The position numbers were made by a program, and so were the translations under genes. From a virus, in UHGV virus genome UHGV-0272533: a DNA stretch of 26,055 bases. One strand, 5' to 3'. Shown in pieces: positions 24 to 25,976 of this stretch; the first letter of the stretch is position 1; every line of letters starts with the position of its first letter. The notes beneath the pieces were generated by a model, which did no database searches, had not been told where the DNA came from, and saw only the letters and a list, made by a program, of their open reading frames with translations.

Positions 24-629
24 ATGATGAATAAAGCTGTATTAAATAGTGAACTCATTGCCATAAAAGCGGGAGACATTATCATTTATAATTATGATGG
101 CGAAACGCGGGAATATATTTCTACATCAACTGAATATCTCGCTGTCGGCGTCGGTATCCCGGCATGTTCCTGTCTGGATGCACCAGGTACACATAAAGCT
201 GGTTATGCAATCTGTCGCTCTGTAGATTTAAATTCATGGGAATATGTGCCAGACCATCGCGGTGAAGTTGTCTATAGTACCGAAACGGGAGATACCAAAG
301 AAATCACAGTTCCGGGTGATTACCCTGAAAATACAACCACTATCGCCCCATTAACGCCATACGATAAATGGGATGGTGAGAAATGGGTGACGGATACCGA
401 GGCACAGCATAGCGCCGCACTAGACGCGGCAGAAGCACAGCGCCAGTCACTGATTAATGCAGCAATGGCTTCCATTAGTCTGATTCAGCTGAAATTACAG
501 GCCGGACGGAAGTTGACGCAGGCAGAAACAACCCGACTTAACGCCGTGCTGGATTACATTGACGCGGTGACGGCAACAGATACCAGCACCGCGCCGGATG
601 TCATCTGGCCTGAACTGCCGGAGGCGTAG
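24..629 (+). CDS. Tail fibre assembly protein (Tfa-like), convergent with the minus-strand tfa
   Basis: 201 aa; ATG at 24 preceded by GAGGG. C-terminus (LNAVLDYIDAVTATDTSTAPDVIWPELP) is the typical Tfa C-terminal motif and is shared with the ORF at 601..1044. 3' ends of the two genes overlap at 601..629. Confidence 0.7.
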   Translation: MMNKAVLNSELIAIKAGDIIIYNYDGETREYISTSTEYLAVGVGIPACSCLDAPGTHKAGYAICRSVDLNSWEYVPDHRGEVVYSTETGDTKEITVPGDYPENTTTIAPLTPYDKWDGEKWVTDTEAQHSAALDAAEAQRQSLINAAMASISLIQLKLQAGRKLTQAETTRLNAVLDYIDAVTATDTSTAPDVIWPELPEA

Positions 630-1044
630 TCCATTCAATATCTGGCGCACTGGAAGTATCGACCATTTCCAGTGCGTCCAGATAATCCAGCCACAAATTA
701 TATTGCACCAGTTCCTCACCTTTCAGACGACCAATTGATGCTTTACCTGGCCATTGTTTACTGTTGATGTATTCGTTGGCCTGATTAATCAATTGCTGCT
801 TTTTAGTTTCGGCTGATGCAATTTGTTCTTCACGTGTTGGTGGAGGAATATCTGCCCATGCAGGCAGTCCATCCTCTCCGACACATCTGTATTTTCCTTC
901 TGGTGGTGTATCATAGAAATATTCCCTGAAAATTACTTCGTCTATATCAACACCTTTTTCTTCAGGCCACTCACCTTTTTCAACATAAAGAGACTGAAGT
1001 TCATAAGGATATGCTAGGTTGTTTACGTACAGATATTTCATCAT
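601..1044 (-). CDS. tfa: Tail fibre assembly protein (Tfa)
   Basis: 147 aa; start ATG overlaps the stop of the upstream tail fibre gene (TAATG at 1042..1046). C-terminal LWLDYLDALEMVDTSSAPDIEWTTPP motif is typical of lambda-type Tfa chaperones. Confidence 0.75.
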   Translation of the reverse strand: MMKYLYVNNLAYPYELQSLYVEKGEWPEEKGVDIDEVIFREYFYDTPPEGKYRCVGEDGLPAWADIPPPTREEQIASAETKKQQLINQANEYINSKQWPGKASIGRLKGEELVQYNLWLDYLDALEMVDTSSAPDIEWTTPPAVQAR

Positions 1045-1853
1045 TACCAGCCCTTAGCGAAAAACGCACCACCTTCAAGACCATAATTGCAGTGAGCTAT
1101 GAAGCCGGTAGTGCTCCAGTTGGTCGCCCCCCACATATTCCCGCCCCCGAAACCACCATCGAACACAATTACAATGCCCGGTGTATGTGTAAATGGAATC
1201 GGGAATGAAACATTGGCGGATACAGGCCCGAGTTCACCAGGAAAACTAATTCGTCCCCACTGTTCAATTGAACCATCTGGCATTTTTCGCCAGCCTGAAC
1301 CTGATGCATATGATGACATATCAGGTATCTGATTTTCCCCAGTTCCCACATTCCGTTTTGCCGCTTCTCCCAAACCAAGGTTTGTGCGAGCGTCTGCGGC
1401 ATTCGTTGCGCCGGTTCCGCCGTCTGCGACAGTAACCGCACCGTTGCTCCCTTTCTGTGCCAGTTTACCGATGCCAGGGATGGTTACGGTGGTCCCGTTG
1501 ATGGTAACGGTGATGGTCTGGTTTGCTGAGGTAGTGGCGAACGTCTCCCACGCGCCAATGTTCTCGTCATACTCTTTGATGAGCTGCGACATTGCCTGGG
1601 CCAGTCCGTCCACGGAGATAATGTCTGACACCAGAATGGCGTATTTCTGGCCGCTCAGCGCCGGGGAAGCGGCAGGCGTAACCGTCATTGACGTGGCGCT
1701 GTTCACGGATGAAATCTGGAACAGTTGCACCGGGTTAGACATCACGATAATTGTCTGGCCAGCGCGAACCTGGCTGGCCGGTGCCGTCCAGTTTGTACCC
1801 GTCCCGGTGGCGGTATTTCCATTAATGGCGATGGTGCCGGTGTTATAAAGCAT
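1044..1853 (-). CDS. Putative tail fibre protein (short, Gly/Thr/Asn-rich)
   Basis: ORF track begins at an alternative TTG at 1868. I prefer ATG at 1851..1853 ([12 protein letters not shown]...) with GGAG 5 nt upstream. Gly/Thr/Ser/Asn-rich composition and position directly upstream of, and coupled to, tfa. Confidence 0.55.
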
Positions 1854-1869
1854 ATTTTCTCCAGGCAAT

Positions 1870-1892
1870 AAAAAAACCCCGCCGGAGCGAGG
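1870..1892 (-). terminator. Rho-independent terminator downstream of the cor-like gene
   Basis: On the minus strand: CCUCGC-UCCG-GCGGGG stem-loop (6 bp including one G-U pair) followed by U7. Sits 22 nt after the lipoprotein stop at 1914. Confidence 0.5.
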
Positions 1893-1913: not shown

Positions 1914-2147
1914 TTATTTGCAGGTTGTTTCGGTAAATGTATTCGCACTTACCCAGCGCCAGCTGAAAGGATATCCAGCCCGGTACTGCGTCTGGTTGTT
2001 TTGTTTACGCACACCGTAAATCTGAACCGTAGTTTCCTGACCGCCAACGATTGCAGTGCCGCTGCAAACTGGTTCCTGTTTCTCAATTACGCCAGCGCAT
2101 CCTGTAAGCATGACAGCGCCTGCCATGCAGATAATCAGTTTTCTCAT
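1914..2147 (-). CDS. cor: Small lipoprotein, Cor-like (putative superinfection-exclusion protein)
   Basis: 77 aa; N-terminus MRKLIICMAGAVMLTGC has a basic n-region, hydrophobic core and lipobox L-T-G-C. Size and position downstream of J are as for Cor of phi80/N15-type phages (from memory; family assignment not verified). Confidence 0.55.
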   Translation of the reverse strand: MRKLIICMAGAVMLTGCAGVIEKQEPVCSGTAIVGGQETTVQIYGVRKQNNQTQYRAGYPFSWRWVSANTFTETTCK

Positions 2148-2204: not shown

Positions 2205-2262
2205 GTATAATTGATTGGATAGATCAATATTATGTTATTGATCGCTAAAAACGATCAATCAA
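2205..2262 (-). promoter_or_regulatory. AT-rich regulatory region upstream of cor with palindromic ATTGATC/GATCAAT motifs and three GATC sites; candidate promoter
   Basis: GATC at 2222..2225, 2240..2243 and 2253..2256. Inverted repeat ATTGATCG(n7)CGATCAAT at 2237..2259 and TTGAT(n8)ATCAA at 2211..2228. On the minus strand, TTGATC (2253..2258), 18-nt spacer, CATAAT (2229..2234) resembles a sigma70 promoter. Confidence 0.3.
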
Positions 2263-3236: not shown

Positions 3237-6200
3237 TCAGAACACCCCCGTTAATCGGCCAACCTGCACTCTCAGAACGTTGTTGCCATCCTTGACGCTG
3301 ATTGTCTGGTTGGTCTGCTTCATGGCTCCCTCCCCAGCTGTCGAACCGTAGTTCTCAAACGTCCCGGACTTATCCAGTTTCCAGCCAACAGAGCCGGCAA
3401 CATAATTGTTCGACTGGATGTAATTGCCAATTTTTGCATTGCTTATGGTCCCGTCGCCAATGACTGTATCCCTGATAATGGCCTGGCCATTCTGGATAAC
3501 GAACGGCAGTGTTACAGTCCCGCCGACCATAGTAGTCACGGCGAAACGGTCTGCCAGGAAGATTACCTGTGACTGCATGCCGGAGGGTGTATTTTGAACC
3601 CCAATACCCATCCCGGCAGCGTAATACTGCCCGTTACTGGACACCCCCACCTTGATGTTATACATCGCGCTGAGGTTACCGTTTACATCTGCTATAGCCT
3701 GTGCGTTGACGTTTATCGCTGCACTGTTTTCGCCTGATTTAACAGTCAGAGTGTTGATTTTTGTTGCCGAAGCCTGGGTGAAATCAGCAAGAGTTTCTGT
3801 CAGGTCCGTTGAGTTAGAGATATTGCCACCAGCTTCTGCATCCAGTGTGACCAGCGCGCGTGCGACCGCCTGGCTGGTATCGGCAATCGTAGTATCCACT
3901 CTGTCTATACTGGCACTGTTCCCGGCGTTTGTTGCTGTCTGGGAACGACGACTGACAACCTGCGCCAGCCCATTCTGGATTATCGCAATTGCCGAATTCT
4001 TCACGCCTCCTGTCATACCGTCCATTGAAACGGAAATCTCATCGATTTTTACCGCCGCCTGCGCCAGCCCGTCAGCGTTTTCCTGTATATCTTTCGCCTG
4101 CTGCTCCAGCTCGTCGGCATGGTTTTTGATTTCGTCAGCCATGCCAGCAATTTTTTCATTGCTGTCCACTGCGCTCTCAATCAGATCTTTAAACGTAGCG
4201 GAGTCTTTGATCTCCTCCAGGATCACATCGGTGATATCGGAAACATCGATGCTGGCCTGACCTCGCACCCAGTCGGTATACCCGGACTCGTTTCCCGTTC
4301 TGTCGACCAGTTGCGCGCGATACCAGAAAATCTGCCCTGCCTTAAGACCCATCTGCTGATATTTGCGCTGCGGATAAGGCACATCGGCCAGCAGCATTGC
4401 ATCATCTTCGCTACCGGTCAGGCTGTACTGAATTTCCGTCTTCAGCGTGTCTTCGGTATTCGCCGGGAATCCCCAGTTCAGCTCGATACCGAATACCACG
4501 TTTTCAGAAGCGATGAAGCCAACCGGCTTCGGTGGGTTTCCCACTTTACCCGTCAACGTTTTCTCTTCTGAATAGCCCCACCCAGATGAAATTTCGGCGG
4601 CATTGATGGCACGCACGCGAACCAGGTAGCGTCCTGCATAAATCCCCGGAACATCGAATGACGTGGTGGAGCTGCGCGGCACATTCACCCAGTTCCCGTC
4701 ATTGCGACGCCACTGTGCCTCATACGCGATAGCATTTTTCGCCTGGTCCCAGCTGACGCGCATGGTCTCAACGCTGATATTCTGCTGAACGACAGAAAAC
4801 GAACTGATCGCGATATTAGCTGGCGGGGACTGATTACCGGGCGGAATTACACTTATTGGCCGCTGGTCGACGATGGCGCCGGTATCGATACGGGCATACT
4901 TATCCGGATCGTGAAAAGCACCAGTAATAGAAAACGTGCCGTCGTTATTATCAGAGACGCTGATAACACGATATTGCTGTGCATAAAGCTCGTCGGATTC
5001 GACAATCCATACCGATTCGACTGCCGGTGTTTCGCTGTATGCCGTGGTCACGGTGACAGCCCGGCCGTTTACGCTCTGAATCGTCCTGCTCTGCGATGCG
5101 CCAGACGGCAGGTTAACCATAAGACGGCTTCCGGCAACGGCAGCGGAATCACGATCAAGCGTGATAACGCGACCATTAACCGCGCTGATACGCCCTCCCA
5201 TCACCTTTCCGGATAACAGCTCATCGGCAACCGCGATAATATAACCAGGCTGTGGAATGTTGCCGTCCAGACCAACATCAAACGATACGATGCGATCCTT
5301 GTTATTGGTCTGAATCCCCCAGCGCCCCTTACGGTTTGCCTCAGACTGCCGGGTACAGCCAATGGCTGTCATCTCGAGCTGGTTTGTGCCAAAGCGAGCG
5401 ACGAGCTCCTGTTCAAAAACCGGCTCCATCGCATCTGCGTAGGCATTACCCGGATCTGACCAGGAAACCAGCGCGGTGGTATAGCGGTTTTTAGTGGTGC
5501 TGCCAGAATAGGTAAAGCGGCCGTCAACCACGTTAGCGCGGGTGTAGCTGTAATCAACATCGCGGGGCATATCTGCCAGTGCAACGATTTGATTGCCGCC
5601 CCAGTACGTCATGCCACGGAATATCGCCGCAAAATCACGTAACACGGTATAGGCGTCATTCCTCTCCTGCACGTACACGTTACAGGTATAGCGAGGCTCG
5701 GTGCCGCTACCGCCTTTACCATCAGGAACCAGCTGATCGCAATATTGTGCGACCTGGTAAAGCGTCCATTTATCAATATTTGCCGCCGTCAGGCGGTCGC
5801 CAAGTCCAAAACGGTCGCTCACCACCAGATCGTAAAAAATCCACGCCGGATTGTCCGTCCATGCCCACTTAAACGCCCCCGTCCAGGTACCGCTATAGGT
5901 CCGGGTTTCCGGATCGTAAGTATCCGGCACGCGGATAACGCGCCCGCGCGGTTCACAGGAAATTTGCGGGATGGAGCCGTTAAACTGGCTTGAATCGAAT
6001 TCAATGTACAGCAGCGCGGTGTTTGGATAGCGCAGTTTGGCATCGATTACCTCCGTGTAGCTCTGCAGCGTCATCGTGTCGCCAATTTTCGCACTGTTCG
6101 CATCTGCGGTGAGCTTACGAAGACGTACCGTCCAGGTGCTTCCCGCCTGCGGTAAGTCGATACGGTGGCTGCGTTCGTAGCCTGACGTGGTTTTCCCGGT

Positions 6201-6692
6201 GACGCTGGTATTAAGCACGGTCTGCCAGGTACCGCCATCTGTCTGCAGATCGATAGCGTAATTAATCGAATAGCCGACCAGATCGCCGTCGTCCTCCTGT
6301 TTAAACAGTGATGGCCATTTGAGGCGCAGACGAATGGCTGACAGCTGGGTGTTGGTAAAGGTATGCGTCCAGGCCGTAGCGCTTGAAACTTCGGTACCTA
6401 CGCTGATTTCATTCTCGGTACCGGGGATGCCCTGAATATACTTTTGAGCCTGAGTCCCCGGGCGGAACTCCCATGCCACGCCGCTGAAGTTTTGCGATCC
6501 GTCTGCATTCTCCAGTGGCGTGCCGTCAAGATAGATATCTTTAGCCGTTAACTGCCCCGCAAATTCCCCTTCTCCCAGCGCAACAAGAATCTTGGCCTTC
6601 GCTACGGACTGGAGATCGTCTGGCTGTTCTGTAGGGGTACGGGAACTGGAACTGCCGCCCTTGCGGCCTCTAATCGGAGTGGAAGTAGCCAT
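3237..6692 (-). CDS. J: Tail tip / host specificity protein J
   Basis: 1151 aa, ATG at 6692. Central region has recognisable similarity to lambda gpJ (e.g. ...YTCNVYVQERNDAYTVLRDFAAIFRGMTYW...). The C-terminal end (...VLRVQVGRLTGVF) differs from lambda's. Confidence 0.9.
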   Translation of the reverse strand: MATSTPIRGRKGGSSSSRTPTEQPDDLQSVAKAKILVALGEGEFAGQLTAKDIYLDGTPLENADGSQNFSGVAWEFRPGTQAQKYIQGIPGTENEISVGTEVSSATAWTHTFTNTQLSAIRLRLKWPSLFKQEDDGDLVGYSINYAIDLQTDGGTWQTVLNTSVTGKTTSGYERSHRIDLPQAGSTWTVRLRKLTADANSAKIGDTMTLQSYTEVIDAKLRYPNTALLYIEFDSSQFNGSIPQISCEPRGRVIRVPDTYDPETRTYSGTWTGAFKWAWTDNPAWIFYDLVVSDRFGLGDRLTAANIDKWTLYQVAQYCDQLVPDGKGGSGTEPRYTCNVYVQERNDAYTVLRDFAAIFRGMTYWGGNQIVALADMPRDVDYSYTRANVVDGRFTYSGSTTKNRYTTALVSWSDPGNAYADAMEPVFEQELVARFGTNQLEMTAIGCTRQSEANRKGRWGIQTNNKDRIVSFDVGLDGNIPQPGYIIAVADELLSGKVMGGRISAVNGRVITLDRDSAAVAGSRLMVNLPSGASQSRTIQSVNGRAVTVTTAYSETPAVESVWIVESDELYAQQYRVISVSDNNDGTFSITGAFHDPDKYARIDTGAIVDQRPISVIPPGNQSPPANIAISSFSVVQQNISVETMRVSWDQAKNAIAYEAQWRRNDGNWVNVPRSSTTSFDVPGIYAGRYLVRVRAINAAEISSGWGYSEEKTLTGKVGNPPKPVGFIASENVVFGIELNWGFPANTEDTLKTEIQYSLTGSEDDAMLLADVPYPQRKYQQMGLKAGQIFWYRAQLVDRTGNESGYTDWVRGQASIDVSDITDVILEEIKDSATFKDLIESAVDSNEKIAGMADEIKNHADELEQQAKDIQENADGLAQAAVKIDEISVSMDGMTGGVKNSAIAIIQNGLAQVVSRRSQTATNAGNSASIDRVDTTIADTSQAVARALVTLDAEAGGNISNSTDLTETLADFTQASATKINTLTVKSGENSAAINVNAQAIADVNGNLSAMYNIKVGVSSNGQYYAAGMGIGVQNTPSGMQSQVIFLADRFAVTTMVGGTVTLPFVIQNGQAIIRDTVIGDGTISNAKIGNYIQSNNYVAGSVGWKLDKSGTFENYGSTAGEGAMKQTNQTISVKDGNNVLRVQVGRLTGVF

Positions 6693-6703: not shown

Positions 6704-6726
6704 AAAAAAGCCACCCTGAGGTGGCC
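6704..6726 (-). terminator. Terminator-like hairpin between I and J
   Basis: Minus strand: GCCACC-UCAG-GGUGGC stem-loop followed by UUUUUU, 14 nt upstream of the J start codon. Confidence 0.4.
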
Positions 6727-6742
6727 TGAAAGAAGGTTTTAT

Positions 6743-8053: not shown

Positions 8054-8809
8054 TCAGCTCCTGATAAGGGATGTACCGGGGAAGCCGCCGAACGGCAGCT
8101 CGTTGCTGTCTCCATGCCGGAGTTTGCAGGCCGTCAGCGTACCGTTGCATTCATCCCGCGAAGGATCGTCAACCGGATTATTGTGTTTATCGAAATAGAG
8201 CGTTCCGGCATAGTCGCAGCCGTCGCCGGTGCGGTACTTGTTCCGGATGCACCAGGAACACAGCGAATGCAGCTGCCGCGTCGGTATCATCCGGCCCTGT
8301 AAATCCATCGGACTGGAAAGCGTAAATTCAACAGCTTCATCCGTCTCGGTACTTCTGGCGTCGATATAAAAGACCTTCAGCTTTTCCTGTGACGGGTCTG
8401 CGGTGGGGTTGCCCTGCGGAAAATTTCTGGCGTCCAGATACTTAGCCAGCGTGTCGTGGATACTGACTTTCGCCTGCAGCAGATCGTCATACGCAAGACA
8501 GAGCGCTGAGATCGAGCTGTCCAGGTTCGCCACCGTCAATTTTGGCTGTGGGCTGGTACCGTCTGTGGTCGCCTCAATACCCTCCACCTGACATGGCCAG
8601 GCTTTATATTCCTCCCCCTGCCACCATATGGACTTCGCCGGAAGTTTATTCTCATCCCCGCCTGCGGCTTCAATCTCTTCCGGGGTGTGTGCGATATTGT
8701 GTGCGTGGAAGCGGAGCACATCTGACATACCGAACGCTGTACCATCGACAGAAAAAAGCCGGACTTCATTGCCCGGCTCAAGTTTTTGATAATCAGCATT
8801 AAGACTCAT
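8054..8809 (-). CDS. L: Tail tip protein L
   Basis: 251 aa; position and Cys-rich C-terminus consistent with lambda gpL; start overlaps the M stop. Confidence 0.85.
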   Translation of the reverse strand: MSLNADYQKLEPGNEVRLFSVDGTAFGMSDVLRFHAHNIAHTPEEIEAAGGDENKLPAKSIWWQGEEYKAWPCQVEGIEATTDGTSPQPKLTVANLDSSISALCLAYDDLLQAKVSIHDTLAKYLDARNFPQGNPTADPSQEKLKVFYIDARSTETDEAVEFTLSSPMDLQGRMIPTRQLHSLCSWCIRNKYRTGDGCDYAGTLYFDKHNNPVDDPSRDECNGTLTACKLRHGDSNELPFGGFPGTSLIRS

Positions 8810-9153
8810 GGTGCAAATGCCTGTTCAAACGTTGCGGTTACGGTTATCACTTTTACGTTTTTAACCACCTTTTTGAGCGTGTCAGCCTCGACACGCCACA
8901 GCGCGGTATCGCCGAAAGGCGGAGTGAAAATAAACGACTTCACTTTATGCCGCCGAAGGAAGGCATGAATTTCATTCGCTGTAGTCGGATCCCCTGAGAA
9001 GGAAAATTCATAGGTGCGAATTTCATCATTCAGACCTGAGCCGCTCACCTGTGCGTAACCGTCGCCGAACTGGACCTTCCTGACGGTGTCTTTGCTTCCC
9101 TCTGTGGGCTGGCTGGAGACCTTAATACCCCAGGAGAATGTTTCTATCGTCAT
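8806..9153 (-). CDS. M: Tail tip protein M
   Basis: 115 aa; KVQFGDGY motif comparable to lambda gpM (KVRFGDGY); immediately downstream of H. Confidence 0.8.
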   Translation of the reverse strand: MTIETFSWGIKVSSQPTEGSKDTVRKVQFGDGYAQVSGSGLNDEIRTYEFSFSGDPTTANEIHAFLRRHKVKSFIFTPPFGDTALWRVEADTLKKVVKNVKVITVTATFEQAFAP

Positions 9154-9158
9154 AACTG

Positions 9159-11675
9159 TTACCTGCGATTGTTCGCATTCCAGATAAGCCCACCGGGCTG
9201 GATTGCCCTGGCGATACCATCGTTGACAGATTTGTTAATCACCTGCTGATACGCCTTACCCAGCCTGTCTCCGTCATTTTGCTGCTGTGCGCCACCGGAG
9301 GCATTCTCGACGGTCACAGGCGCGTACACGCTCACCCCGAAAGGTGCTGCAGCGGGACCTGTGCCACTGCCCCCGACAAGCCCTCCTGTGGCGTACCCTT
9401 TCATCATCCGGTAAAGGTTGCCGACGCCGATCCGACTGGTAGCCTCTTTGGTGAAAACAAATTCGCCACGGTGAACGACACCTGCGGGTTCATATTTCCC
9501 ACCCGAACCGGTGAATCCCCCGCTGGCAAACCCCAGCGCCGTGGAGGCTGAATCTACCAGTCCGGTCATTGCCTGCTTCAGCAGAATTTGTGTCAGCATG
9601 GAGAGCGTGGAGCGGGTAAAGTCAGCCCAGTCAGCCTTTCCGCGTGTCAGCATGTCTGCCATATTCTGCCCGATGCCATCAAACGTACTGGTGGCAACCG
9701 ACTTCATCTGGCCATAAGCATCTGAAGCGGAATCAACATAATCTGCCCATGCGGATTTGGCCCCGGATTGCCAGTCGTCCCGCAGCTTATCCTGCTCGGC
9801 GTAATACGCCTGCAGCGCCTGCAGCTCATTCTGATAACCAGCGTCGTTCTCCGAACCGCCACCATTTTTCCAGCCCTGAAGAAGCTGGGCCTCCTCATTG
9901 CGGCGTTGTGCTGCACGACTGCTCATACCAGCACTTTCCGCAAGGGCTCGGGTTTTCTCGCCGATCTGCGTGACGTATTTTTGGGACGTATCCTGCAGGC
10001 GGTTAAGCCGCTCCTGCGCCACTATCTGATCGCCAAGCTTCGCGTTCAGCTCTGCACGGGAAAGCACCTCGCTTTTACTGGCCAGCAGGGATTTTTCCTC
10101 GGCAGAAAGCGTCCGGGTCTTCGCGGCTTCTTCCAGAACCGTAAACCGGGACTGTTGACGCCACAGCTCCTGACGCTGCTGGCTGATGGTGTCATTGATC
10201 CCCTTATGCTCCTGCAGGGTGCGCAGCTGTGCTTCCAGCTCCATCGTCTGGGCGCTGGCCGTATCGGTTGCACGGGTACCGGCAGGTGTCCTGACTGCAG
10301 GGGTTTTCTTCGGTTTTTTGAGGGTGTCTTCGTACTCTTTTTTCGCGGCGGCCAGGTTGATGTTGTAGTCAGCCTGGAGGATCCGCCCCTCTTTCAGAGC
10401 CTTATTGAGCTCGCTCTGCCTGGCCGTGTATTTCTCAAGGGCAGTTTGGGTTTTGGCATAGTTGGCCTGAGCCTGCGCGGCATATTTCTGACGATCGGAC
10501 TCTGCGACCGCTTCACGGGAAGCATTCTCTTCGTTCGCTTTGGCAATACCAGCCTGCTGCTGCGCCATATCCAGTGCCAGTCTGGCCGTTTCACGATCAT
10601 TCCAGAACCGGGCGCGGGCCTCATCATTCACATAATGATCGCCTTTACGCAGATTCCAGATTTCATCAGCCTTTTTAAACGCGGCCTGGGCTTTTGCCAC
10701 CATCTCCTGGGCGGTGTCAGGTCTGCCAATATCAAGTGCAGCATCCCACATCGACTTGAAGGCACGCTTCAGGGAATCCGCTGAAGACTCAATCGTCCCC
10801 ATATTGTCGCGGATGGCCTTGGTCTGATCGTTGAATCCGGCAGTAGCAGCCTGATTAGCCGCCTGCAGTGCGCCAGCCTCATCACCGGCACGCTGCAGCT
10901 GTGCCACATGGGCAATCTGTTCGGCCGTAACGTTGTGGAACTGCTGAGCCATCGCGATCAGGCCTGATGTAGGGTCAGTAGTGAGCTTGCCGTATGCGGC
11001 TGCGACTTTTTCCACCGGCACGCCGGAGGCATCAGTAAATCGCGCCACCGCCTGGCTCATTTCATCAAAGCGCGAACTCGCGCCCACCCCCGCGTTGATA
11101 AGCTCGCTCAGGGCTTCGCTGGTCTGATTGAACGTCAGCCCCGCTGCCTGGCCGTTTCGTGCCAGCGCCAACATACGATCGGCAGTCAATCCGGCCGTGT
11201 TCCCCGATAGTACCAGCGTTTTGTTGAAGTCAGATAGTGTGGATGAGCCCTGGTACCAGGCATAGAACAGCGTACCCGTTGCGGCGGACAGCGCACCGAT
11301 GCCGACCATCAACGGTGAGATCGTACCCAGTAAGGCCCGGAATGTTGGTATTATCCCGCCAAAGGAGTCCTTAACCTGACCGCCCTGCTGAAGCAGAATC
11401 AGCCATGGGTTCTGCCCGCCCGCTAGCTGCGTAGCTATATCGGTAAACTGCGCCGGAAGCATACGCATTGCTGCGTTATACTGGCCTATTGAAATACCCG
11501 CCTTGCGCGCGGCGTTCTCCTGGCGGCTAAAGGACTGCTGGATCCGTAGCGCTTCGTCGTTCGCCGCGCTGCCAGTCTGCTTTAATTCTTTTTTGACGTA
11601 GTTAAGCTGCTCGTTAAATTTCGTCGAGTTAACGTCAAGGTTAACGACCAGATCACCCACTGCCGTCTGGGCCAT
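9159..11675 (-). CDS. H: Tail tape measure protein H
   Basis: 838 aa; Ala/Gln-rich coiled-coil-like central region, Gly-rich C-terminus; position after G-T. Confidence 0.9.
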   Translation of the reverse strand: MAQTAVGDLVVNLDVNSTKFNEQLNYVKKELKQTGSAANDEALRIQQSFSRQENAARKAGISIGQYNAAMRMLPAQFTDIATQLAGGQNPWLILLQQGGQVKDSFGGIIPTFRALLGTISPLMVGIGALSAATGTLFYAWYQGSSTLSDFNKTLVLSGNTAGLTADRMLALARNGQAAGLTFNQTSEALSELINAGVGASSRFDEMSQAVARFTDASGVPVEKVAAAYGKLTTDPTSGLIAMAQQFHNVTAEQIAHVAQLQRAGDEAGALQAANQAATAGFNDQTKAIRDNMGTIESSADSLKRAFKSMWDAALDIGRPDTAQEMVAKAQAAFKKADEIWNLRKGDHYVNDEARARFWNDRETARLALDMAQQQAGIAKANEENASREAVAESDRQKYAAQAQANYAKTQTALEKYTARQSELNKALKEGRILQADYNINLAAAKKEYEDTLKKPKKTPAVRTPAGTRATDTASAQTMELEAQLRTLQEHKGINDTISQQRQELWRQQSRFTVLEEAAKTRTLSAEEKSLLASKSEVLSRAELNAKLGDQIVAQERLNRLQDTSQKYVTQIGEKTRALAESAGMSSRAAQRRNEEAQLLQGWKNGGGSENDAGYQNELQALQAYYAEQDKLRDDWQSGAKSAWADYVDSASDAYGQMKSVATSTFDGIGQNMADMLTRGKADWADFTRSTLSMLTQILLKQAMTGLVDSASTALGFASGGFTGSGGKYEPAGVVHRGEFVFTKEATSRIGVGNLYRMMKGYATGGLVGGSGTGPAAAPFGVSVYAPVTVENASGGAQQQNDGDRLGKAYQQVINKSVNDGIARAIQPGGLIWNANNRR

Positions 11676-12008: not shown

Positions 12009-12404
12009 AGTAACAGGTTCAGCGGGTTCATTACGTTCTTCACCGGGCTCAGCCTGGTCATCAGTGACCGGCGCAATCATCCCGGACAGGAGTTTCACCT
12101 TATATTCGGCTTCGGCAACAAGTTCGGTCGGCCATGTCTGCATGACCTCATCCTGAATCTGCTCCACTTCCGCCGCCGCGTTTTCTCCCTGCGATCCTTT
12201 AAGCGCGTGGCCATGCCAGAGTGACATTGCCACCAGATATGCTCCACTCTTCACGGTAAGGGTAATGGCAGCCTGAAAATCACCAGCTTCAACCGCCTCA
12301 AGTTGTTTCAGGTATTCGAGGTATTCAATACGCTGCAGCGCCGACAGCTGGAACAATGTGACGCTGCTGCCGTTACTTTCAAGCAGCTCGCTCTTTAGAA
12401 ACAT
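11982..12404 (-). CDS. G: Tail assembly chaperone G
   Basis: 140 aa, same length as lambda gpG; ATG at 12404 with GGAG 6 nt upstream; similarity to lambda G (e.g. AMSLWH). Confidence 0.85.
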   Translation of the reverse strand: MFLKSELLESNGSSVTLFQLSALQRIEYLEYLKQLEAVEAGDFQAAITLTVKSGAYLVAMSLWHGHALKGSQGENAAAEVEQIQDEVMQTWPTELVAEAEYKVKLLSGMIAPVTDDQAEPGEERNEPAEPVTAEKPSPVS

Positions 12405-12440
12405 AATTACTCCGGGGGAACGGGGCTTTCGCCCCGGTTA

Positions 12441-19516: not shown

Positions 19517-21438
19517 TATTCATCTCCAGATAATGCCCGCGCGTAATCCGCCAGGGTCTTGTTATTGTTACGGCTGCCTTCTTCCTCCAGCAGGCTGGCC
19601 AGAAGTGAATCAAGATTTAGCTGCCAGCGGGATATGCTTATACGCAGCGCCGCCAGTGCATAAACAAAGCAATCGAGCGCCTCATTTCGTCGTTTTTTGC
19701 TGTCCCAGACGATCTTTTTCTTTCCGTCTACCCATTTTTCCACCTGCTCTTCAGCTGTTAGTTGTTGGGCCTCTGTTAGATCGTAGATTTCTGGGTTATT
19801 CGGGAAATGAACCGCTCCCGCCAGCGGCTCGTCTCTTTGCGCCACCAGCGTGAAACGGTTATAAATCTGCTCTTTTGCGGTGTCTGTTCCTACCTCTGTG
19901 AGGTAAACACCATTCTTGTTACGCTTGCGTGGCATGTTCGCCACTGGCTTTCCATAAACCGACGCCCCCTTTATAGGGATCACACGAAACAGACCGTGTT
20001 TTTTTGAGCGGTTGTAGACGATGGTGGGATCAATGCCGCCAATATCCCAGCAAGTGCGGGATATAACCATTTCGAGACCGTTCTGGCGCTTATACGTCCT
20101 GTTGATCGCTTCATCAACTCGAGCGAGAGTCGACTCATCATCATGACGACCCATAATGATAATTTTGTCGATAAGCCAGCTTTCCTCTCCCGGCCCCCAT
20201 CCCCAAACACGCATTTCGTAACGGTCAAGCTGGGAGTCAATACCCGCTGTCAGATATGCCACTCGCTCCGGCACAGACGCTTCAAAGTGCTCTTTTCGTT
20301 CCGCTAAAACTTCAGCATCGGGTCGTTCACCTATTTTCGGTTCCCACGTTTCGCCCAGGGTCGTGTTAACGAAAGTTTTTCGCTTACCCGTATCACCTTT
20401 TGTTTTTATCCAGTCCTTGACGATCTGCACCCAGGTTGTGAACGGGCTATATGCGGTCCAGATGTGGAATGTAACGCTGTCAGGAGGTTCAATTTCGGTA
20501 CCGGATGAAGAAAACCAGTTAAGGCCGTCTCGTGTCCAGATACCTGTTTCATCACAAATATACCTGGCCTCCAGAAATTCCAGCTCCTGTTGTTTAATCA
20601 CACAGGCATTGTGTTCACAGAGGTAGTAAACGCTGGCAGGTTCTCCCGGAGACCATTTGAAGCCAAATGGTGTCTCTTTATCACCGAATTTCAGATACTG
20701 CTCTTCCCCACAGTGTGGGCATGGAACATGGAACCGAAGAAAATGTTCAGACTCCTTAGCAGCTCTTTCTATCTGGCACGTACCTTTGACTTTCGGTGTA
20801 GATCCGCGAATGGATTTCGGCCATACAGAACCCTCAATACGCTTATCACCCAGAAAGGTGGGAGAACCTTCTTTCTCGATGTCATCATCGAAAGCGGCGA
20901 GCTCGTCGTAGCCAGCCACATCAACTGATTTTTCACGGTAGTTTTTTGCAGCCTTACCGCCCAGGCACCAGAAACCACGACCATTCGAGAAACGCTTCAT
21001 GCTCAGCGTATTGTCCCGGTGTTTTTTACCGTACCAGGGAGCAAGCGCCAGCAACGTCGGAATATCACGAATGGTCGGTTCTACATGAGACTTCATGAAG
21101 TTTTCAGCATCACCGTCGGTTGGTAACCATATTAGGGAGTTACGCTGTTTATGTTGGATGAAATATGCGTAAACGCCGAGCAACATTTTTGAGTAGCCGA
21201 CACGAGCCGATTTAACGACATTCACCTCGCGAATATAGTCATTACCCATCGCATTCATAATTGCACGCTGAAATGGCAGTGTTTCCCAGCGCCCTTCCTG
21301 GTAGGCAGACTCTTTCGGGAGATAATAATTCTCATCTGCCCATTCAACTGCTGTTTGCGGTTGCGGCCGGTACAGCGAACGTAACCCCGCCCGCGCAGAG
21401 TGCTGCAGCCCCTTAACCTGACTGTTCGATATATTCAC
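19516..21438 (-). CDS. A: Terminase large subunit A
   Basis: 640 aa (lambda gpA is 641); N-terminus MNISNSQV...[23 protein letters not shown] as in lambda; GTG start at 21438. Confidence 0.95.
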
Positions 21439-21958
21439 TCAGCAACCCCGGTATCATTTCATCCAGCGCAGCTGCCTTGTTCATGGCCTTAATGATGTCC
21501 TTCTTGAGGAAATCAATATGTCGGTTCTCCAGCTCCGGGAAGCGCCGCTGAACCGACAGAGGTATTCCATCGAGAATGCTGGCGATTTCTCCGGCTACCC
21601 GCGACAGCACGAACGTGCAGAATGCGGTCTCCACCACTTCAGCGGACTCTTTTGCATTTTTTAATTCCTGAGCGTCAGCCTGAGCTCGCGTAAGTCGGTG
21701 TCGCTCATATTCAATCGTGCCAGGTTGAAGATCGGACTCAGAAGCGATACGGAGATCTTCAACTTCCTTCCGCAACTTTTCATTTTCTATAGCTGCATCG
21801 CGCGCACTGTACCATTCGATTGCAGCAGCAGATTCAAAGAGAACCTCATTACCTTTGCCACCACCGCGGACAACCGGCATACCTTGCTCCTGCCAGTTCT
21901 GAATCGTTCGGACGCTTACCCCGAAAATTTCGGATAAGCGTTTTTTGTTAACCTCCAT
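21413..21958 (-). CDS. nu1: Terminase small subunit Nu1
   Basis: 181 aa; near-identical to lambda Nu1 (MEVNKK...IRTIQNWQEQGMPV.RGGGKGNEVL); overlaps A by 26 nt as in lambda; GGAG 7 nt upstream. Confidence 0.95.
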   Translation of the reverse strand: MEVNKKRLSEIFGVSVRTIQNWQEQGMPVVRGGGKGNEVLFESAAAIEWYSARDAAIENEKLRKEVEDLRIASESDLQPGTIEYERHRLTRAQADAQELKNAKESAEVVETAFCTFVLSRVAGEIASILDGIPLSVQRRFPELENRHIDFLKKDIIKAMNKAAALDEMIPGLLSEYIEQSG

Positions 21959-22059: not shown

Positions 22060-22190
22060 AAACAATGAGTAAACAAGAAGAAGAACGGAAATGGCATAAA
22101 CCAGAAAATTTTCATAAATAGCGAGAATCTGCGCGGACGCCGCCCCGTGGTAGGCCACCCCGCCGGGAGGACCCATCAGAATATGAGATG
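22060..22190 (-). other. cos: cos region: cosN cohesive-end site (about 22133..22144) with flanking cosB/cosQ-like sequence
   Basis: Minus strand reads ACGGGGCGGCGTCCGCGCAGATTCTCGCTATTTATGAAAATTTTCTGG, versus recalled lambda ACGGGGCGGCGACCTCGCGGGTTTTCGCTATTTATGAAAATTTTCCGG. Lies immediately upstream of Nu1. Confidence 0.6.
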
Positions 22191-22271
22191 AATATCCGAG
22201 GCTTATAAACACCCTCGAAGAGTTATTGTCAGCTGGATCTACAAAAGAGAATAAAGGTAAGTACTAGCTAT

Positions 22272-22294
22272 AAAAAAACCCCGCAAGAGCGAGG
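22272..22294 (-). terminator. Rho-independent terminator ending the kinase-phosphatase operon
   Basis: Minus strand: CCUCGC-UCUU-GCGGGG stem-loop followed by U7, 18 nt after the phosphatase stop. Nearly identical to the terminator at 1870..1892. Confidence 0.55.
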
Positions 22295-22311
22295 TTTTAG
22301 CACTTATGGGG

Positions 22312-23049
22312 TTAACTAACTTTGAATTGAGCAGCTATCAATGAATAATCATCGGTGGGTGTTTTCTTTAAAATACGTTTATACAAACTTGCAGTGAAGC
22401 TACTAACATTACCAAGCGTATTCAAAGAAAAACGAGGTCGATGCTCCCAGAAATGATGTGCACCATCAGACATAATGAAAAGTGTAAGCACTCCGTTATC
22501 GTCTACTATATCAGCCAGTGGCAAAACTACATGCTGATACCGTATCGTCAAACTGCGAGTTAACGCCGCAGTAAGAGTATTCTTTCCTGGCAATTGCTCA
22601 AGCTCTTTTTTAGTATAAAGGCCGTCGTCCAAAAGTTCTTGATGCTGAGTATGGTCCTTTGTGACAAGATTAAGTTTGCCGCCCTTCTTAATGTAAACTC
22701 TGGTATCGCCAACATGAATCACATTCAATTCTTTAGCTGTTAAGAAACAATAAGAAAGAGTTGTTGCCGCTTTAAAATATTCATTATTTAAATTAGACAA
22801 TGCAATAATGTTATTTTGTATTAGCTCCAATGTGAGCTGTGGGTTTAACAATTTTTCTTTATTGAGTTCAGCAAGTTGACTAGTTGCTATATTCGCAGCA
22901 TCTTTGGCTCCAGGATAAGAACCAACGCCATCCGCAACAGCAAAAACAAATGCCCCATCCACTTGCCGAGGTAGCAATATCGCATCTTGATTGTCATGCT
23001 CTACATTTTTTGAGCATGAGAATGCTGCGCAACTCAACAAATTAATCAT
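22312..23049 (-). CDS. PP2C-family (PPM) Ser/Thr protein phosphatase
   Basis: 245 aa; acidic metal-ligand motifs in PP2C order: ED (17-18), AVADGVGS (DG 40-41), GDTR (114-117), SDG (194-196), TDD (232-234). Start ATG overlaps the kinase stop (ATGA). AT-rich codon usage. Confidence 0.7.
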   Translation of the reverse strand: MINLLSCAAFSCSKNVEHDNQDAILLPRQVDGAFVFAVADGVGSYPGAKDAANIATSQLAELNKEKLLNPQLTLELIQNNIIALSNLNNEYFKAATTLSYCFLTAKELNVIHVGDTRVYIKKGGKLNLVTKDHTQHQELLDDGLYTKKELEQLPGKNTLTAALTRSLTIRYQHVVLPLADIVDDNGVLTLFIMSDGAHHFWEHRPRFSLNTLGNVSSFTASLYKRILKKTPTDDYSLIAAQFKVS

Positions 23050-23825
23050 TGCATTGTCCTCGCTATAACACTGTCTAAATCACTGAGCATCTGAGTGACT
23101 GAATCGAATCTAGCATTTGGGACATATGCTGTAGATCTATCCACAATTGCCCCAATCCCGGGAGCATCTTTTAGGTTTAATTCATTTATAATTACACCCA
23201 AAGCATAAATATCTGATTTTTCGGTATATGTCCCACGCTGTGCTTCTGGTGACATGTATTCAGGTGTGCCTATGCCAATTGAACGATCCTGCAAAATATT
23301 TGAAAGAAATGCTGATTGAGCTTCAGAGTTAATTGTCTTAACAAGCCCAAAATCTGAGATTTTATAGCAACCATCAGGGTACATGAGAATATTTTCCGGT
23401 TTCAAATCTCGATGCAAGTAACCATTCCTATGTATGTATTCAACTCCCTTTAGGACCATCCTGAGCATTTCAAGCTTATCGCGTTCAGTCAACACACCTT
23501 CGTTCATCTGTTTACGGAGGTCACATTCAGCTAGTTCCATAACAAACCATGGGTTATCGATGCTAAGATGATGTATGCATACAGGTACAACATTGTCATG
23601 CGTACACTCAGCTTGATACCTGACTTCACGTTCAAATCTTCGCTTCCAATCGTCCAAAGAAAAGAGGTGGTTGATAAGCTTGGGATTCACAGAAAGGACC
23701 TTCCTTGCGTAGAAGCCGCTGAAATGGCCTAACGTATTATAGACTTCAACCTTTTCAACCCGTCCAAAGGTTCCTTGACCCAATTCATCAATCGGTTTGA
23801 TTAAATAATTCCCTCTAGGATCCAT
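23046..23825 (-). CDS. Hanks-type (eukaryotic-like) Ser/Thr protein kinase, minimal catalytic domain
   Basis: 259 aa; Gly-rich loop GQGTFG (16-21), AxK Lys42, catalytic loop HRDLKPEN (138-145), DFG (158-160), activation segment GTPEYMSPE (186-194), DIYALG (205-210). AT-rich relative to flanking genes. Confidence 0.8.
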   Translation of the reverse strand: MDPRGNYLIKPIDELGQGTFGRVEKVEVYNTLGHFSGFYARKVLSVNPKLINHLFSLDDWKRRFEREVRYQAECTHDNVVPVCIHHLSIDNPWFVMELAECDLRKQMNEGVLTERDKLEMLRMVLKGVEYIHRNGYLHRDLKPENILMYPDGCYKISDFGLVKTINSEAQSAFLSNILQDRSIGIGTPEYMSPEAQRGTYTEKSDIYALGVIINELNLKDAPGIGAIVDRSTAYVPNARFDSVTQMLSDLDSVIARTMQ

Positions 23826-25467: not shown

Positions 25468-25884
25468 ATGACCATGGATGTAGGATTACTTATCGCGTCC
25501 CTTAAAAACGGGATCGGCGCGCTTTCTGCTGTGCAAAGTAACGAGGTCCTGCGCGAGCGCATCGCTTTCATTGGAGAGCAGATCGACGTACTTCAAAAAG
25601 CCCATGCTGCCACCATAGCAGAACTTGCCGAGGCGAAAGCCAAGAACGTAGAACTTGAGAAGGAAATAGCGGCTTATCGGGCAAAGGATGAGTTTGTCGA
25701 GCACATGGGTGCGGCCTTTAGAAAAAATCCCGCGGGTGGGTATATCAGCGCGGTTTATTGCCCCAACTGTCTTAAACAGGTCGGTAGCGGGTTCGATGAC
25801 TTTCCTTACCATTGCGGCTCCTGCGGCTGGACTTCAAGATTTGAAGGAAGGGAGATTGATAGCGTAATGAAAACCCTCCCTTAA
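25468..25884 (+). CDS. Hypothetical coiled-coil / zinc-ribbon protein, antisense to late transcription
   Basis: 138 aa; N-terminal heptad-like region, C-terminal CPNC...CGSC four-Cys motif. Start may be the second ATG at 25474 (AGGGA 7 nt upstream). Followed by a hairpin at 25891..25910. Confidence 0.45.
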   Translation: MTMDVGLLIASLKNGIGALSAVQSNEVLRERIAFIGEQIDVLQKAHAATIAELAEAKAKNVELEKEIAAYRAKDEFVEHMGAAFRKNPAGGYISAVYCPNCLKQVGSGFDDFPYHCGSCGWTSRFEGREIDSVMKTLP

Positions 25885-25920: not shown

Positions 25921-25956
25921 GAAACGCAAAAGCCCCACGGTGTTATCCGCGGGGCT
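25921..25956 (-). terminator. tR'-like intrinsic terminator just downstream of the late promoter
   Basis: Minus strand: AGCCCCGCGG-AUAACA-CCGUGGGGCU stem-loop (one mismatch) followed by UUUUGCGUUUC. Confidence 0.5.
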
Positions 25957-25976
25957 TGAAACGAAGGCATTAACCC

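Follow-up and report, generated by a model that had tools for sequence, protein, structure and literature searches.

The window analysed here, a stretch of 26,055 nucleotides of the virus genome UHGV-0272533, is the late region of a lambdoid prophage of the phi80/HK type, in which essentially all genes are on the minus strand, this single strand carrying everything from the holin gene to tfa. In the direction of transcription, the window encodes the end of Q, a terminator at the position of tR', a holin, a lysozyme, an Rz-like protein, a Ser/Thr protein kinase and a PP2C-family phosphatase, followed by a terminator (site 2), cosN, the terminase genes Nu1 and A, the head and tail genes including a J-like gene (3237-6692, minus strand), homologues of phi80 gp22 and gp23, cor, a second terminator (site 1), stf and tfa. 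Nu1, the small terminase subunit (21413-21958, minus strand; PF07471, E = 1.6e-95), is the first structural-operon gene downstream of site 2, and cosN lies at approximately 22137-22150, where the minus strand reads GGGCGGCGTCCG, about 120 nt downstream of the same terminator. The right end of the window consists of the last bases of Q and a terminator, 100% identical to phage HK225, in whose record both are annotated. This terminator (25930-25957, minus strand), located just 3' of the Q stop codon, is at what we read as the position expected of tR', and it marks where the late transcription unit with sites 1 and 2 begins; indeed, it is from their place in the gene order that both sites are assigned to this long unit. 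The late unit of lambdoid phages is read by a Q-modified RNA polymerase, as known from lambda.

Two other features of the window were recorded. An ORF on the opposite strand (25468-25884, plus strand; phrog_1244, of unknown function, HK225_067 in HK225) is present between the tR'-position terminator and the holin gene, within the late leader region. At the other end, two tfa genes (24-629, plus strand; 601-1044, minus strand) are arranged tail to tail with overlapping 3' ends, downstream of an stf gene whose homology with HK140 ends at about 1342; the pair and stf together resemble one half of an invertible tail-fibre segment of the Mu/P1 type, whose second half, with any invertase, would be outside the window. 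An Rfam scan of the whole window found no family at the gathering score.

A search with the pattern AAACCTCGCTCNNGCGGGGTTTTTTTAT found two minus-strand matches and no others in the window, at 1868-1895 and at 22270-22297, each reading AAACCTCGC-TCNN-GCGGGGTTTTTTTAT. In brief, (i) terminator 1 (AAACCTCGCTCCGGCGGGGTTTTTTTAT) is composed of the stem sequence AAACCTCGC (1895-1887), the loop TCCG (1886-1883) and a 3' half made of GCGGGG and seven T (1882-1870), the first three T finishing the stem, followed by AT (1869-1868), and (ii) terminator 2 (AAACCTCGCTCTTGCGGGGTTTTTTTAT) is composed of the same stem sequence (22297-22289), the loop TCTT (22288-22285) and an identical 3' half (22284-22272), the first three T again finishing the stem, followed by AT (22271-22270). 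Both sites fold into a 9-bp stem (AAACCUCGC/GCGGGGUUU) with the same U.G (T.G) wobble, a tetraloop and then U7, with folding energies of -15.4 kcal/mol (z = -2.6) at site 1 and -16.2 kcal/mol (z = -4.0) at site 2. The hairpin begins 18 nt past the cor stop codon at site 1 and 14 nt past the PP2C stop codon at site 2. Each site thus combines a GC-rich hairpin and an immediate U-tract on the transcribed strand with a position just past a stop codon, where a transcription unit ends, and to judge from sequence and fold the two are textbook intrinsic (rho-independent) terminators.

The first-pass annotation had described the two terminators as near-identical over about 25 of 28 positions and as differing mainly in the loop, which is accurate: they are identical at 26 of 28 positions, both differences being at loop positions 3-4 (TCCG vs TCTT), and the coordinates that it gave (1870-1892 and 22272-22294) are those of the hairpin cores. 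Stretched to 31 nt, the pair is still identical at 28 positions (90%) and is the closest match (family D2) among the direct-repeat families listed for the window. Pairwise alignment of the two regions, proposed as a check in that annotation, returned the 26/28 block and no similarity beyond it in the 70 nt on either side. No match to the pattern was found in 100 dinucleotide-preserving shuffles of the sequence, with up to three mismatches allowed. Once it is granted that both elements are terminators with an A-tract, a hairpin and a T-tract, the independent information shrinks to about six stem positions including the wobble, two loop positions and the geometry; under that condition, and with a handful of terminators on the strand, we estimate the chance of such a resemblance at still roughly 1e-4.

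Several other candidates and readings were set aside at this stage. A third copy (12398-12428, 65% identity) was rejected, as it is without hairpin or T-tract and looks like a chance match. Bidirectional termination was rejected as well: read on the opposite strand, the hairpins have no more than TTTATG or TTTTAG after them, and neither is approached by a convergent plus-strand gene. A pairing of the loop (CUCCGG) with the downstream Shine-Dalgarno sequence (CCGGAG) was also rejected, since AG, TT and TG loops occur without a matching change in the Shine-Dalgarno sequence. An unrelated intergenic hairpin served as a control (6708-6727, minus strand); it is strong, is followed by T6 and lies within the 50-nt gap between an I-like gene and J, with no accessory gene. 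Another hairpin (8756-8779) was rejected as a control as it falls inside an ORF (8054-8809). The consensus terminator scan listed site 1 and missed the near-identical site 2; our guess is that the stem of site 2 was extended into the A4/T run, so that not enough T remained in the tail window. The blind spot of the scan is worth bearing in mind.

Site 1 follows cor (1914-2147, minus strand; phrog_1119, E = 7e-37), a superinfection-exclusion lipoprotein gene, which is the cargo of the first cassette. The GC content of the cor region is about 47%, against 51-55% for its neighbours. The slot is occupied in lambda by lom, and in one of the contigs retrieved (L028) by a different, unannotated cargo ORF of 371 aa. 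A sigma-70-like promoter candidate is present upstream of cor (2229-2258, minus strand; TTGATC-18-CATAAT, 9/12), identified by consensus match only. Immediately 3' of the terminator lies the side tail fibre gene stf (1044-1853, minus strand), which matches tail-fibre PHROGs from residue 1. Its Shine-Dalgarno region, TGCCTGGAGAAAAT followed by the ATG start codon (1851-1867, minus strand), is part of an island of about 41 nt, made of terminator and ribosome-binding site, that is common to otherwise unrelated loci. Site 1 itself is already known from public records: the homologous site is annotated as a rho-independent terminator in HK140 and phi80, the match in mEp237, mEp043 and mEp213 is listed as 'terminator', and the element and its position are the same in all of these phages (GenBank records for these phages and for ES18, discussed below: JX871397, FN582354, JQ086370, JQ182730, AY736146). 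In phi80 the sequence is identical up to and including the following ATTGCCTGGAGAAAATATG that starts stf. The lom-stf junction of lambda is alike in having an outer-membrane accessory gene after J, then a hairpin with a T-run, a ribosome-binding site and stf, whereas its hairpin sequence (AGCCCGCCGGAACCGGTGGGCTTTTTT) is different; the architecture is therefore shared and the sequence family is not.

Site 2 follows a two-gene cassette between the lysis genes and cos (22312-23825, minus strand). The first gene (23046-23825, minus strand) codes for a Ser/Thr protein kinase identified by Pfam match, which resembles the defence kinases PD-T4-6, Stk2 and mad6. The second (22312-23049, minus strand) codes for a PP2C-family Ser/Thr phosphatase (PF13672, E = 1.8e-14), an annotation also found in the RefSeq record of a 99.9% identical copy. 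Carried on the prophage, the pair probably acts as a defence or toxin-antidote module. With 39-41% GC it stands out from its surroundings (48-56%), and both genes and the terminator are missing from the Rz-cos interval of phages Eeyore and HK225. Among 5426 complete E. coli genomes, only 2 have the cassette, and the copy examined there adjoins different packaging genes; the cassette is also present in a Buttiauxella MAG (L125). The scan listed no sigma-70 promoter before the kinase gene, and the candidates found there by eye (TTGACA-16-TAGGGT and TTGCTA-16-TATACA) are weak; because no good sigma-70 promoter precedes the kinase gene, the cassette may be expressed only within the late transcript. 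Homology with phages that carry other packaging modules breaks at cosN, about 120 nt past the terminator. None of the phage records searched was found to annotate a terminator at this location. Site 2 adds a new member to the terminator family: it differs from the annotated terminators of phi80, HK140, the mEp phages and ES18 in that it follows kinase/PP2C genes upstream of cos, has a TCTT loop and is without the GCCYGGAGA extension.

That both elements directly follow the final gene of an accessory cassette, as proposed in the first-pass annotation, is thus borne out by the phrog_1119 match of Cor, by the Pfam matches of the kinase and the phosphatase and by the absence of the second cassette from Eeyore and HK225. 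In HK97 and HK022, a moron is an inserted late-operon gene that brings its own promoter and terminator, and HK97 gene 15, the first named moron, lies in the slot between the tail chaperone and tape-measure genes (PMC3594210). The cassettes of the window are alike in that their accessory genes are set among essential late genes, are missing at this place in relatives (Eeyore and HK225 for the kinase/PP2C pair; lom or the L028 cargo instead of cor), deviate in base composition (clearly for kinase/PP2C, with only about 47% GC to go by for cor) and have their own 3' terminator, which at site 2 is missing where the cassette is missing. They are unlike in that cor has only a weak candidate for an own promoter and the kinase cassette no evident one, and in that the terminator also ends host genes and occurs at tR' positions.

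The exact pattern was found in 111 IMG/VR contigs, with 53 types of upstream flank. Across these 53 contexts, the gap between stop codon and hairpin is typically 14-21 nt and the next gene typically starts about 17 nt past the T-run, preceded by AT(T)GCCYGGAGA. The genes downstream code for tape measure proteins (51 contigs), phi80-type Stf (22 contigs), Neck1/tail completion proteins, another tail fibre, a baseplate hub and a baseplate wedge; those upstream code mostly for small lipoproteins or membrane proteins of unknown function, Cor and PP2C being among them. The commonest context is the chaperone/tape-measure slot, i.e. that of HK97 gene 15. In ES18, the motif (T6, then ATTGCCCGGAGA) lies between gp20 and the tape-measure gene, and the record annotates it as a putative terminator of gp20, a 'possible moron'. 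The loop variants are constant within cassettes: a TT loop accompanies kinase/PP2C in the three loci concerned (L003, L075, L125) and a CG loop accompanies all 20 cor-stf contexts of the phi80 type. The search of related prophages for the motif at moron boundaries, which the first-pass annotation had suggested, thus found it at accessory-gene boundaries, and also at tR' positions: in L011/L082 it lies 71 nt downstream of a Phage_antitermQ gene, and a Q gene is just upstream in L047 as well, the upstream flank of which is shared by L067 and L111.

The control hairpin gave a similar picture on a smaller scale. Its 26-mer is present in eight IMG/VR contigs with six different upstream flanks and is followed by GGGCGCAAT(A/TC)ATG. 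Since this unrelated terminator also recurs with several flanks, the reuse of short terminators at late-operon boundaries is a general tendency, of which the main motif is the most successful example seen here; and since it separates an essential I-like gene from J without a cassette, late-operon terminators are not confined to accessory cassettes. In two contigs (L021, L115) the main motif is followed by the same ribosome-binding site as the control, ATGGGCGCAATTCATG, which suggests that one junction makes use of different terminators.

In the chaperone/tape-measure slot, several cargo genes (L007, L050, L083, L100, L114 and others) share, ahead of the cargo ATG, a conserved 5' leader of about 70 nt that ends in GGGGATAGGGATATG, and another terminator-like hairpin precedes the leader in L050, L100, L113 and L114. 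Because the leader is shared, the slot provides constant 5' and 3' frames around a variable lipoprotein cargo. One upstream cluster (cluster 0) was rejected as an artefact, the ORF caller having run unrelated cargo genes into the shared 5' leader. Furthermore, a Cor-like lipoprotein gene is present in this slot, and not in the J/stf slot, in L008 (8747-8983), the one contig inspected from a flank group of nine; the same terminator follows about 165 nt after the gene (9148-9173).

The motif is also widespread on host chromosomes. A blastn search found it in 5424 of 5426 complete E. coli genomes, the median genome having it at three places. The 25-mer AAACCTCGCTCCGGCGGGGTTTTTT is identical (25/25) at istR and rpmG and matches at 24 of 25 positions at rplY. 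Indeed, (i) at istR the 25-mer is the 3' end of a full-length match to the Rfam family of the IstR sRNA (IstR-1/2; RF01400, positions 1-130 of 130), which ends exactly on the T-run, (ii) in the rpmBG operon it lies directly after rpmG, ahead of mutM, and (iii) at rplY it lies directly after the gene, the single change being a C-G pair in place of the T.G wobble. Three unrelated core loci (L134, L136, L141; 1201-1225 in each) thus end in one terminator sequence. What the window shares with IstR is the terminator only, the covariance model finding no IstR match in the window. The exact T7 form is present in only 19 of 185,579 species-representative genomes, mostly Enterobacterales, and four of these hits are again in rpmG contexts; a few exact matches are in distant taxa (Flavobacteriaceae, Bacteroidia, Burkholderiaceae, Moraxellaceae and other MAGs).

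Because the identical 25-mer terminates unrelated core genes of the host, the motif is a common enterobacterial terminator and not a moron-specific mark; occurrence at unrelated host genes, seen here at IstR and rpmBG and, at 24/25, at rplY, is the very finding that the first-pass annotation had set against its own reading. Of the common modular moron architecture that it had proposed, one part stands, as the same terminator closes many accessory genes in the late operons of other phages, including ES18 gp20; the other part does not, as the motif is generic and creates no link between the two cassettes. The pairing in the window is ordinary.

Taken as a whole, these observations are, with good confidence, explained by two independently placed copies of a widespread enterobacterial terminator (AAACCTCGC-TCNN-GCGGGG-U7) inside a Q-antiterminated late operon. 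In the lysogen, a polymerase without Q modification would start at the promoters of the cassettes or at stray upstream promoters, transcribe cor, or the kinase and PP2C genes, and be released at the hairpin and U-tract. Release at site 1 would shield the tail-fibre genes (stf/tfa) from transcription, and release at site 2 would shield cos and the terminase genes Nu1 and A; this insulating role is less clear for site 2, because the second cassette is perhaps expressed only from the late transcript. After induction, a Q-modified polymerase would pass both sites, and the downstream genes could be translated from a Shine-Dalgarno sequence directly after the U-tract. Read-through of this hairpin by Q-type antitermination is plausible because the same motif sits at tR' positions (L011/L082 and L047). 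The near-identity of the two sites would reflect the circulation of one terminator sequence, often joined to an AT(T)GCCYGGAGA ribosome-binding site, between the chromosomes of enterobacteria and the late operons of phages, with its copies at module boundaries; judged from their flanks and loops, the two sites are independent members of this family that met in one mosaic genome.

A further role at the DNA level, compatible with this explanation and adding to it, would be that of an active recombination linker, in which recombinases of the phage or the host would exchange accessory cargo and structural modules by crossing over at the terminator, with or without its ribosome-binding site (26-41 nt of identity); we regard this as possible, and clearly less probable than the explanation above. 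Homology blocks between loci do start or stop at the element. Gapped comparison shows that the sequence shared by L056 and L072 begins 3 nt before the hairpin and that the sequence shared by L005 with L074 and L097 ends 11-12 nt after the T-run, while site 1 of the window shares with L010 only the 41-nt island (97.6%) and with L004 cor and the terminator, and not the downstream fibre gene. Only joint pairs confirmed by gapped BLAST were used, and some pairs that seemed to share the upstream and differ in the downstream sequence were dropped, as their offsets came from differences in T-run length. A given cargo occurs next to different tape-measure genes, and a given tape-measure gene next to different cargos; the information content is about 0 bits immediately 5' of the hairpin and falls to about 0 within some 15 nt on its 3' side. 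The element therefore fits a module boundary, and by analogy may be a crossover point.

A precedent is provided by the promoter-early stem-loop (PeSL) mobile regulatory cassettes of T4-type phages (Arbiol et al. 2010, PMC2839356), in which short conserved terminator-forming stem-loops likewise flank non-essential genes and coincide with the joints of modular shuffling. PeSLs have a strong promoter and many copies per genome, in hyperplastic regions, whereas the island described here is a hairpin, a U-tract and, where present, a ribosome-binding site of about 12 nt, without promoter (the promoter scans listed no promoter-like site at either terminator) and with one or two copies per genome: two in the window, and two in none of the 111 IMG/VR contigs, so that no genome other than the window was found with two copies able to recombine. 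Mosaic joints of phages fall at gene boundaries anyway, and abutment would be expected without any causal role of the terminator; at site 2, the homology break is at cosN and not at the hairpin. It is also doubtful that 26-41 bp of identity suffices for efficient homologous recombination.

A bolder form of the linker reading holds that the unit of about 40 nt (AAACCTCGC-TCNN-GCGGGG-U7-AT(T)GCCYGGAGA) is a portable linker, perhaps captured from a host junction such as rpmG-mutM, which swaps late-operon cargo by short-homology recombination, restores translation of the downstream structural gene and is the lambdoid/Mu-like counterpart of the PeSL cassettes; this we consider rather improbable, and slightly more so than a crossover role as such. 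The ribosome-binding region of mutM after the host rpmG terminator (L121, L126, L136) reads CCCGGAGGAG or CCTGGAGA, and its CCYGGAG resembles the GCCYGGAGA of the phage unit, a likeness too weak to build on; it is at most a hint that the phage unit could have been derived from that junction.

Copies that arose independently, under selection for a strong and compact terminator optimum (a GC-rich stem, a UNCG-type loop, an A-tract and a U-tract), are an unlikely source of the resemblance. This convergence would be in keeping with the TCCG loop, which, closed by a C-G pair, we take to be a stable tetraloop of the UNCG type, with the exact matches in distant phyla, with the recurrence of the control terminator in several flanks and with the small effective information of the motif, which is far less than that of 26 independent nt because the hairpin is self-complementary and the A/T tracts are generic. 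The stem and the loops point the other way. Among the phage contigs, the less stable stem with the T.G wobble (111 contigs) is 6.5 times commoner than the perfect C-G stem (17 contigs) and about 100 times commoner than the T-A stem (1 contig), and non-UNCG loops (TCAG, TCTT, TCTG) are common. Because several C-G and T-A variants are found in the same slots as the wobble form, they look like point mutations that preserve the pair.

The sequence 3' of the hairpin is conserved as well: in phages, some 12 nt beyond the U-tract (AT(T)GCCYGGAGA) recur ahead of downstream genes from five different families, and the three chromosomal copies of E. coli share extra 3' bases of their own, GTTAYCTGC or GTCTCTGC. 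The two sets are different, the IstR, rpmBG and rplY terminators having T6 and then GTTAYCTGC and the phage copies T7 and then AT(T)GCC. The dominance of the wobble, the common non-UNCG loops, the 3' conservation and the concentration of the rare exact T7 form in Enterobacterales argue for shared descent of most enterobacterial and phage copies, though not necessarily of every copy; an independent origin of some copies is possible because exact matches exist in distant taxa.

A direct duplication or gene conversion between the two cassettes in this phage lineage, the recombination that the first-pass annotation had envisaged, is very improbable: the two copies are on the same strand of one genome and form its closest listed direct-repeat pair, but their flanks are unrelated right up to the hairpin, each loop variant stays with its own cassette across other genomes, the cor copy is present in many phages without the kinase cassette, and a second copy was found in none of the 111 IMG/VR contigs.

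For the window, the result is mainly a tidier annotation of a feature that is real, functional-looking and largely known, with two credible terminators delimiting, in the late operon, the Cor exclusion cassette and a rare kinase/phosphatase cassette that is probably a defence module. More generally, one particular hairpin is found again and again, at more than 50 late-operon module boundaries, at tR' positions and at core host genes, even though its variants with a perfect stem are stronger. Should it be a circulating terminator-RBS unit and not a product of convergence, it would offer a sequence handle on how morons slot between virion genes while late expression remains unbroken, and a simple marker for accessory cargo in enterobacterial prophages. 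A full-text search for the motif (as DNA, RNA and reverse complement) found no paper, and the literature retrieved with moron, terminator and mosaic terms held nothing specific to the element; the breadth of its reuse, including the identity to the IstR and rpmBG terminators, is a modest side result, of which the literature searched gave no description.

Two further terminators are close to the family in sequence. The phi80 terminator after Rz1 (L002, 610-632) has the same CCTCGC/GCGGGG core including the T.G wobble, and the annotated T1 terminator before terS (L154, 1503-1525) has the family sequence minus the wobble pair, followed by ATGCCTG.
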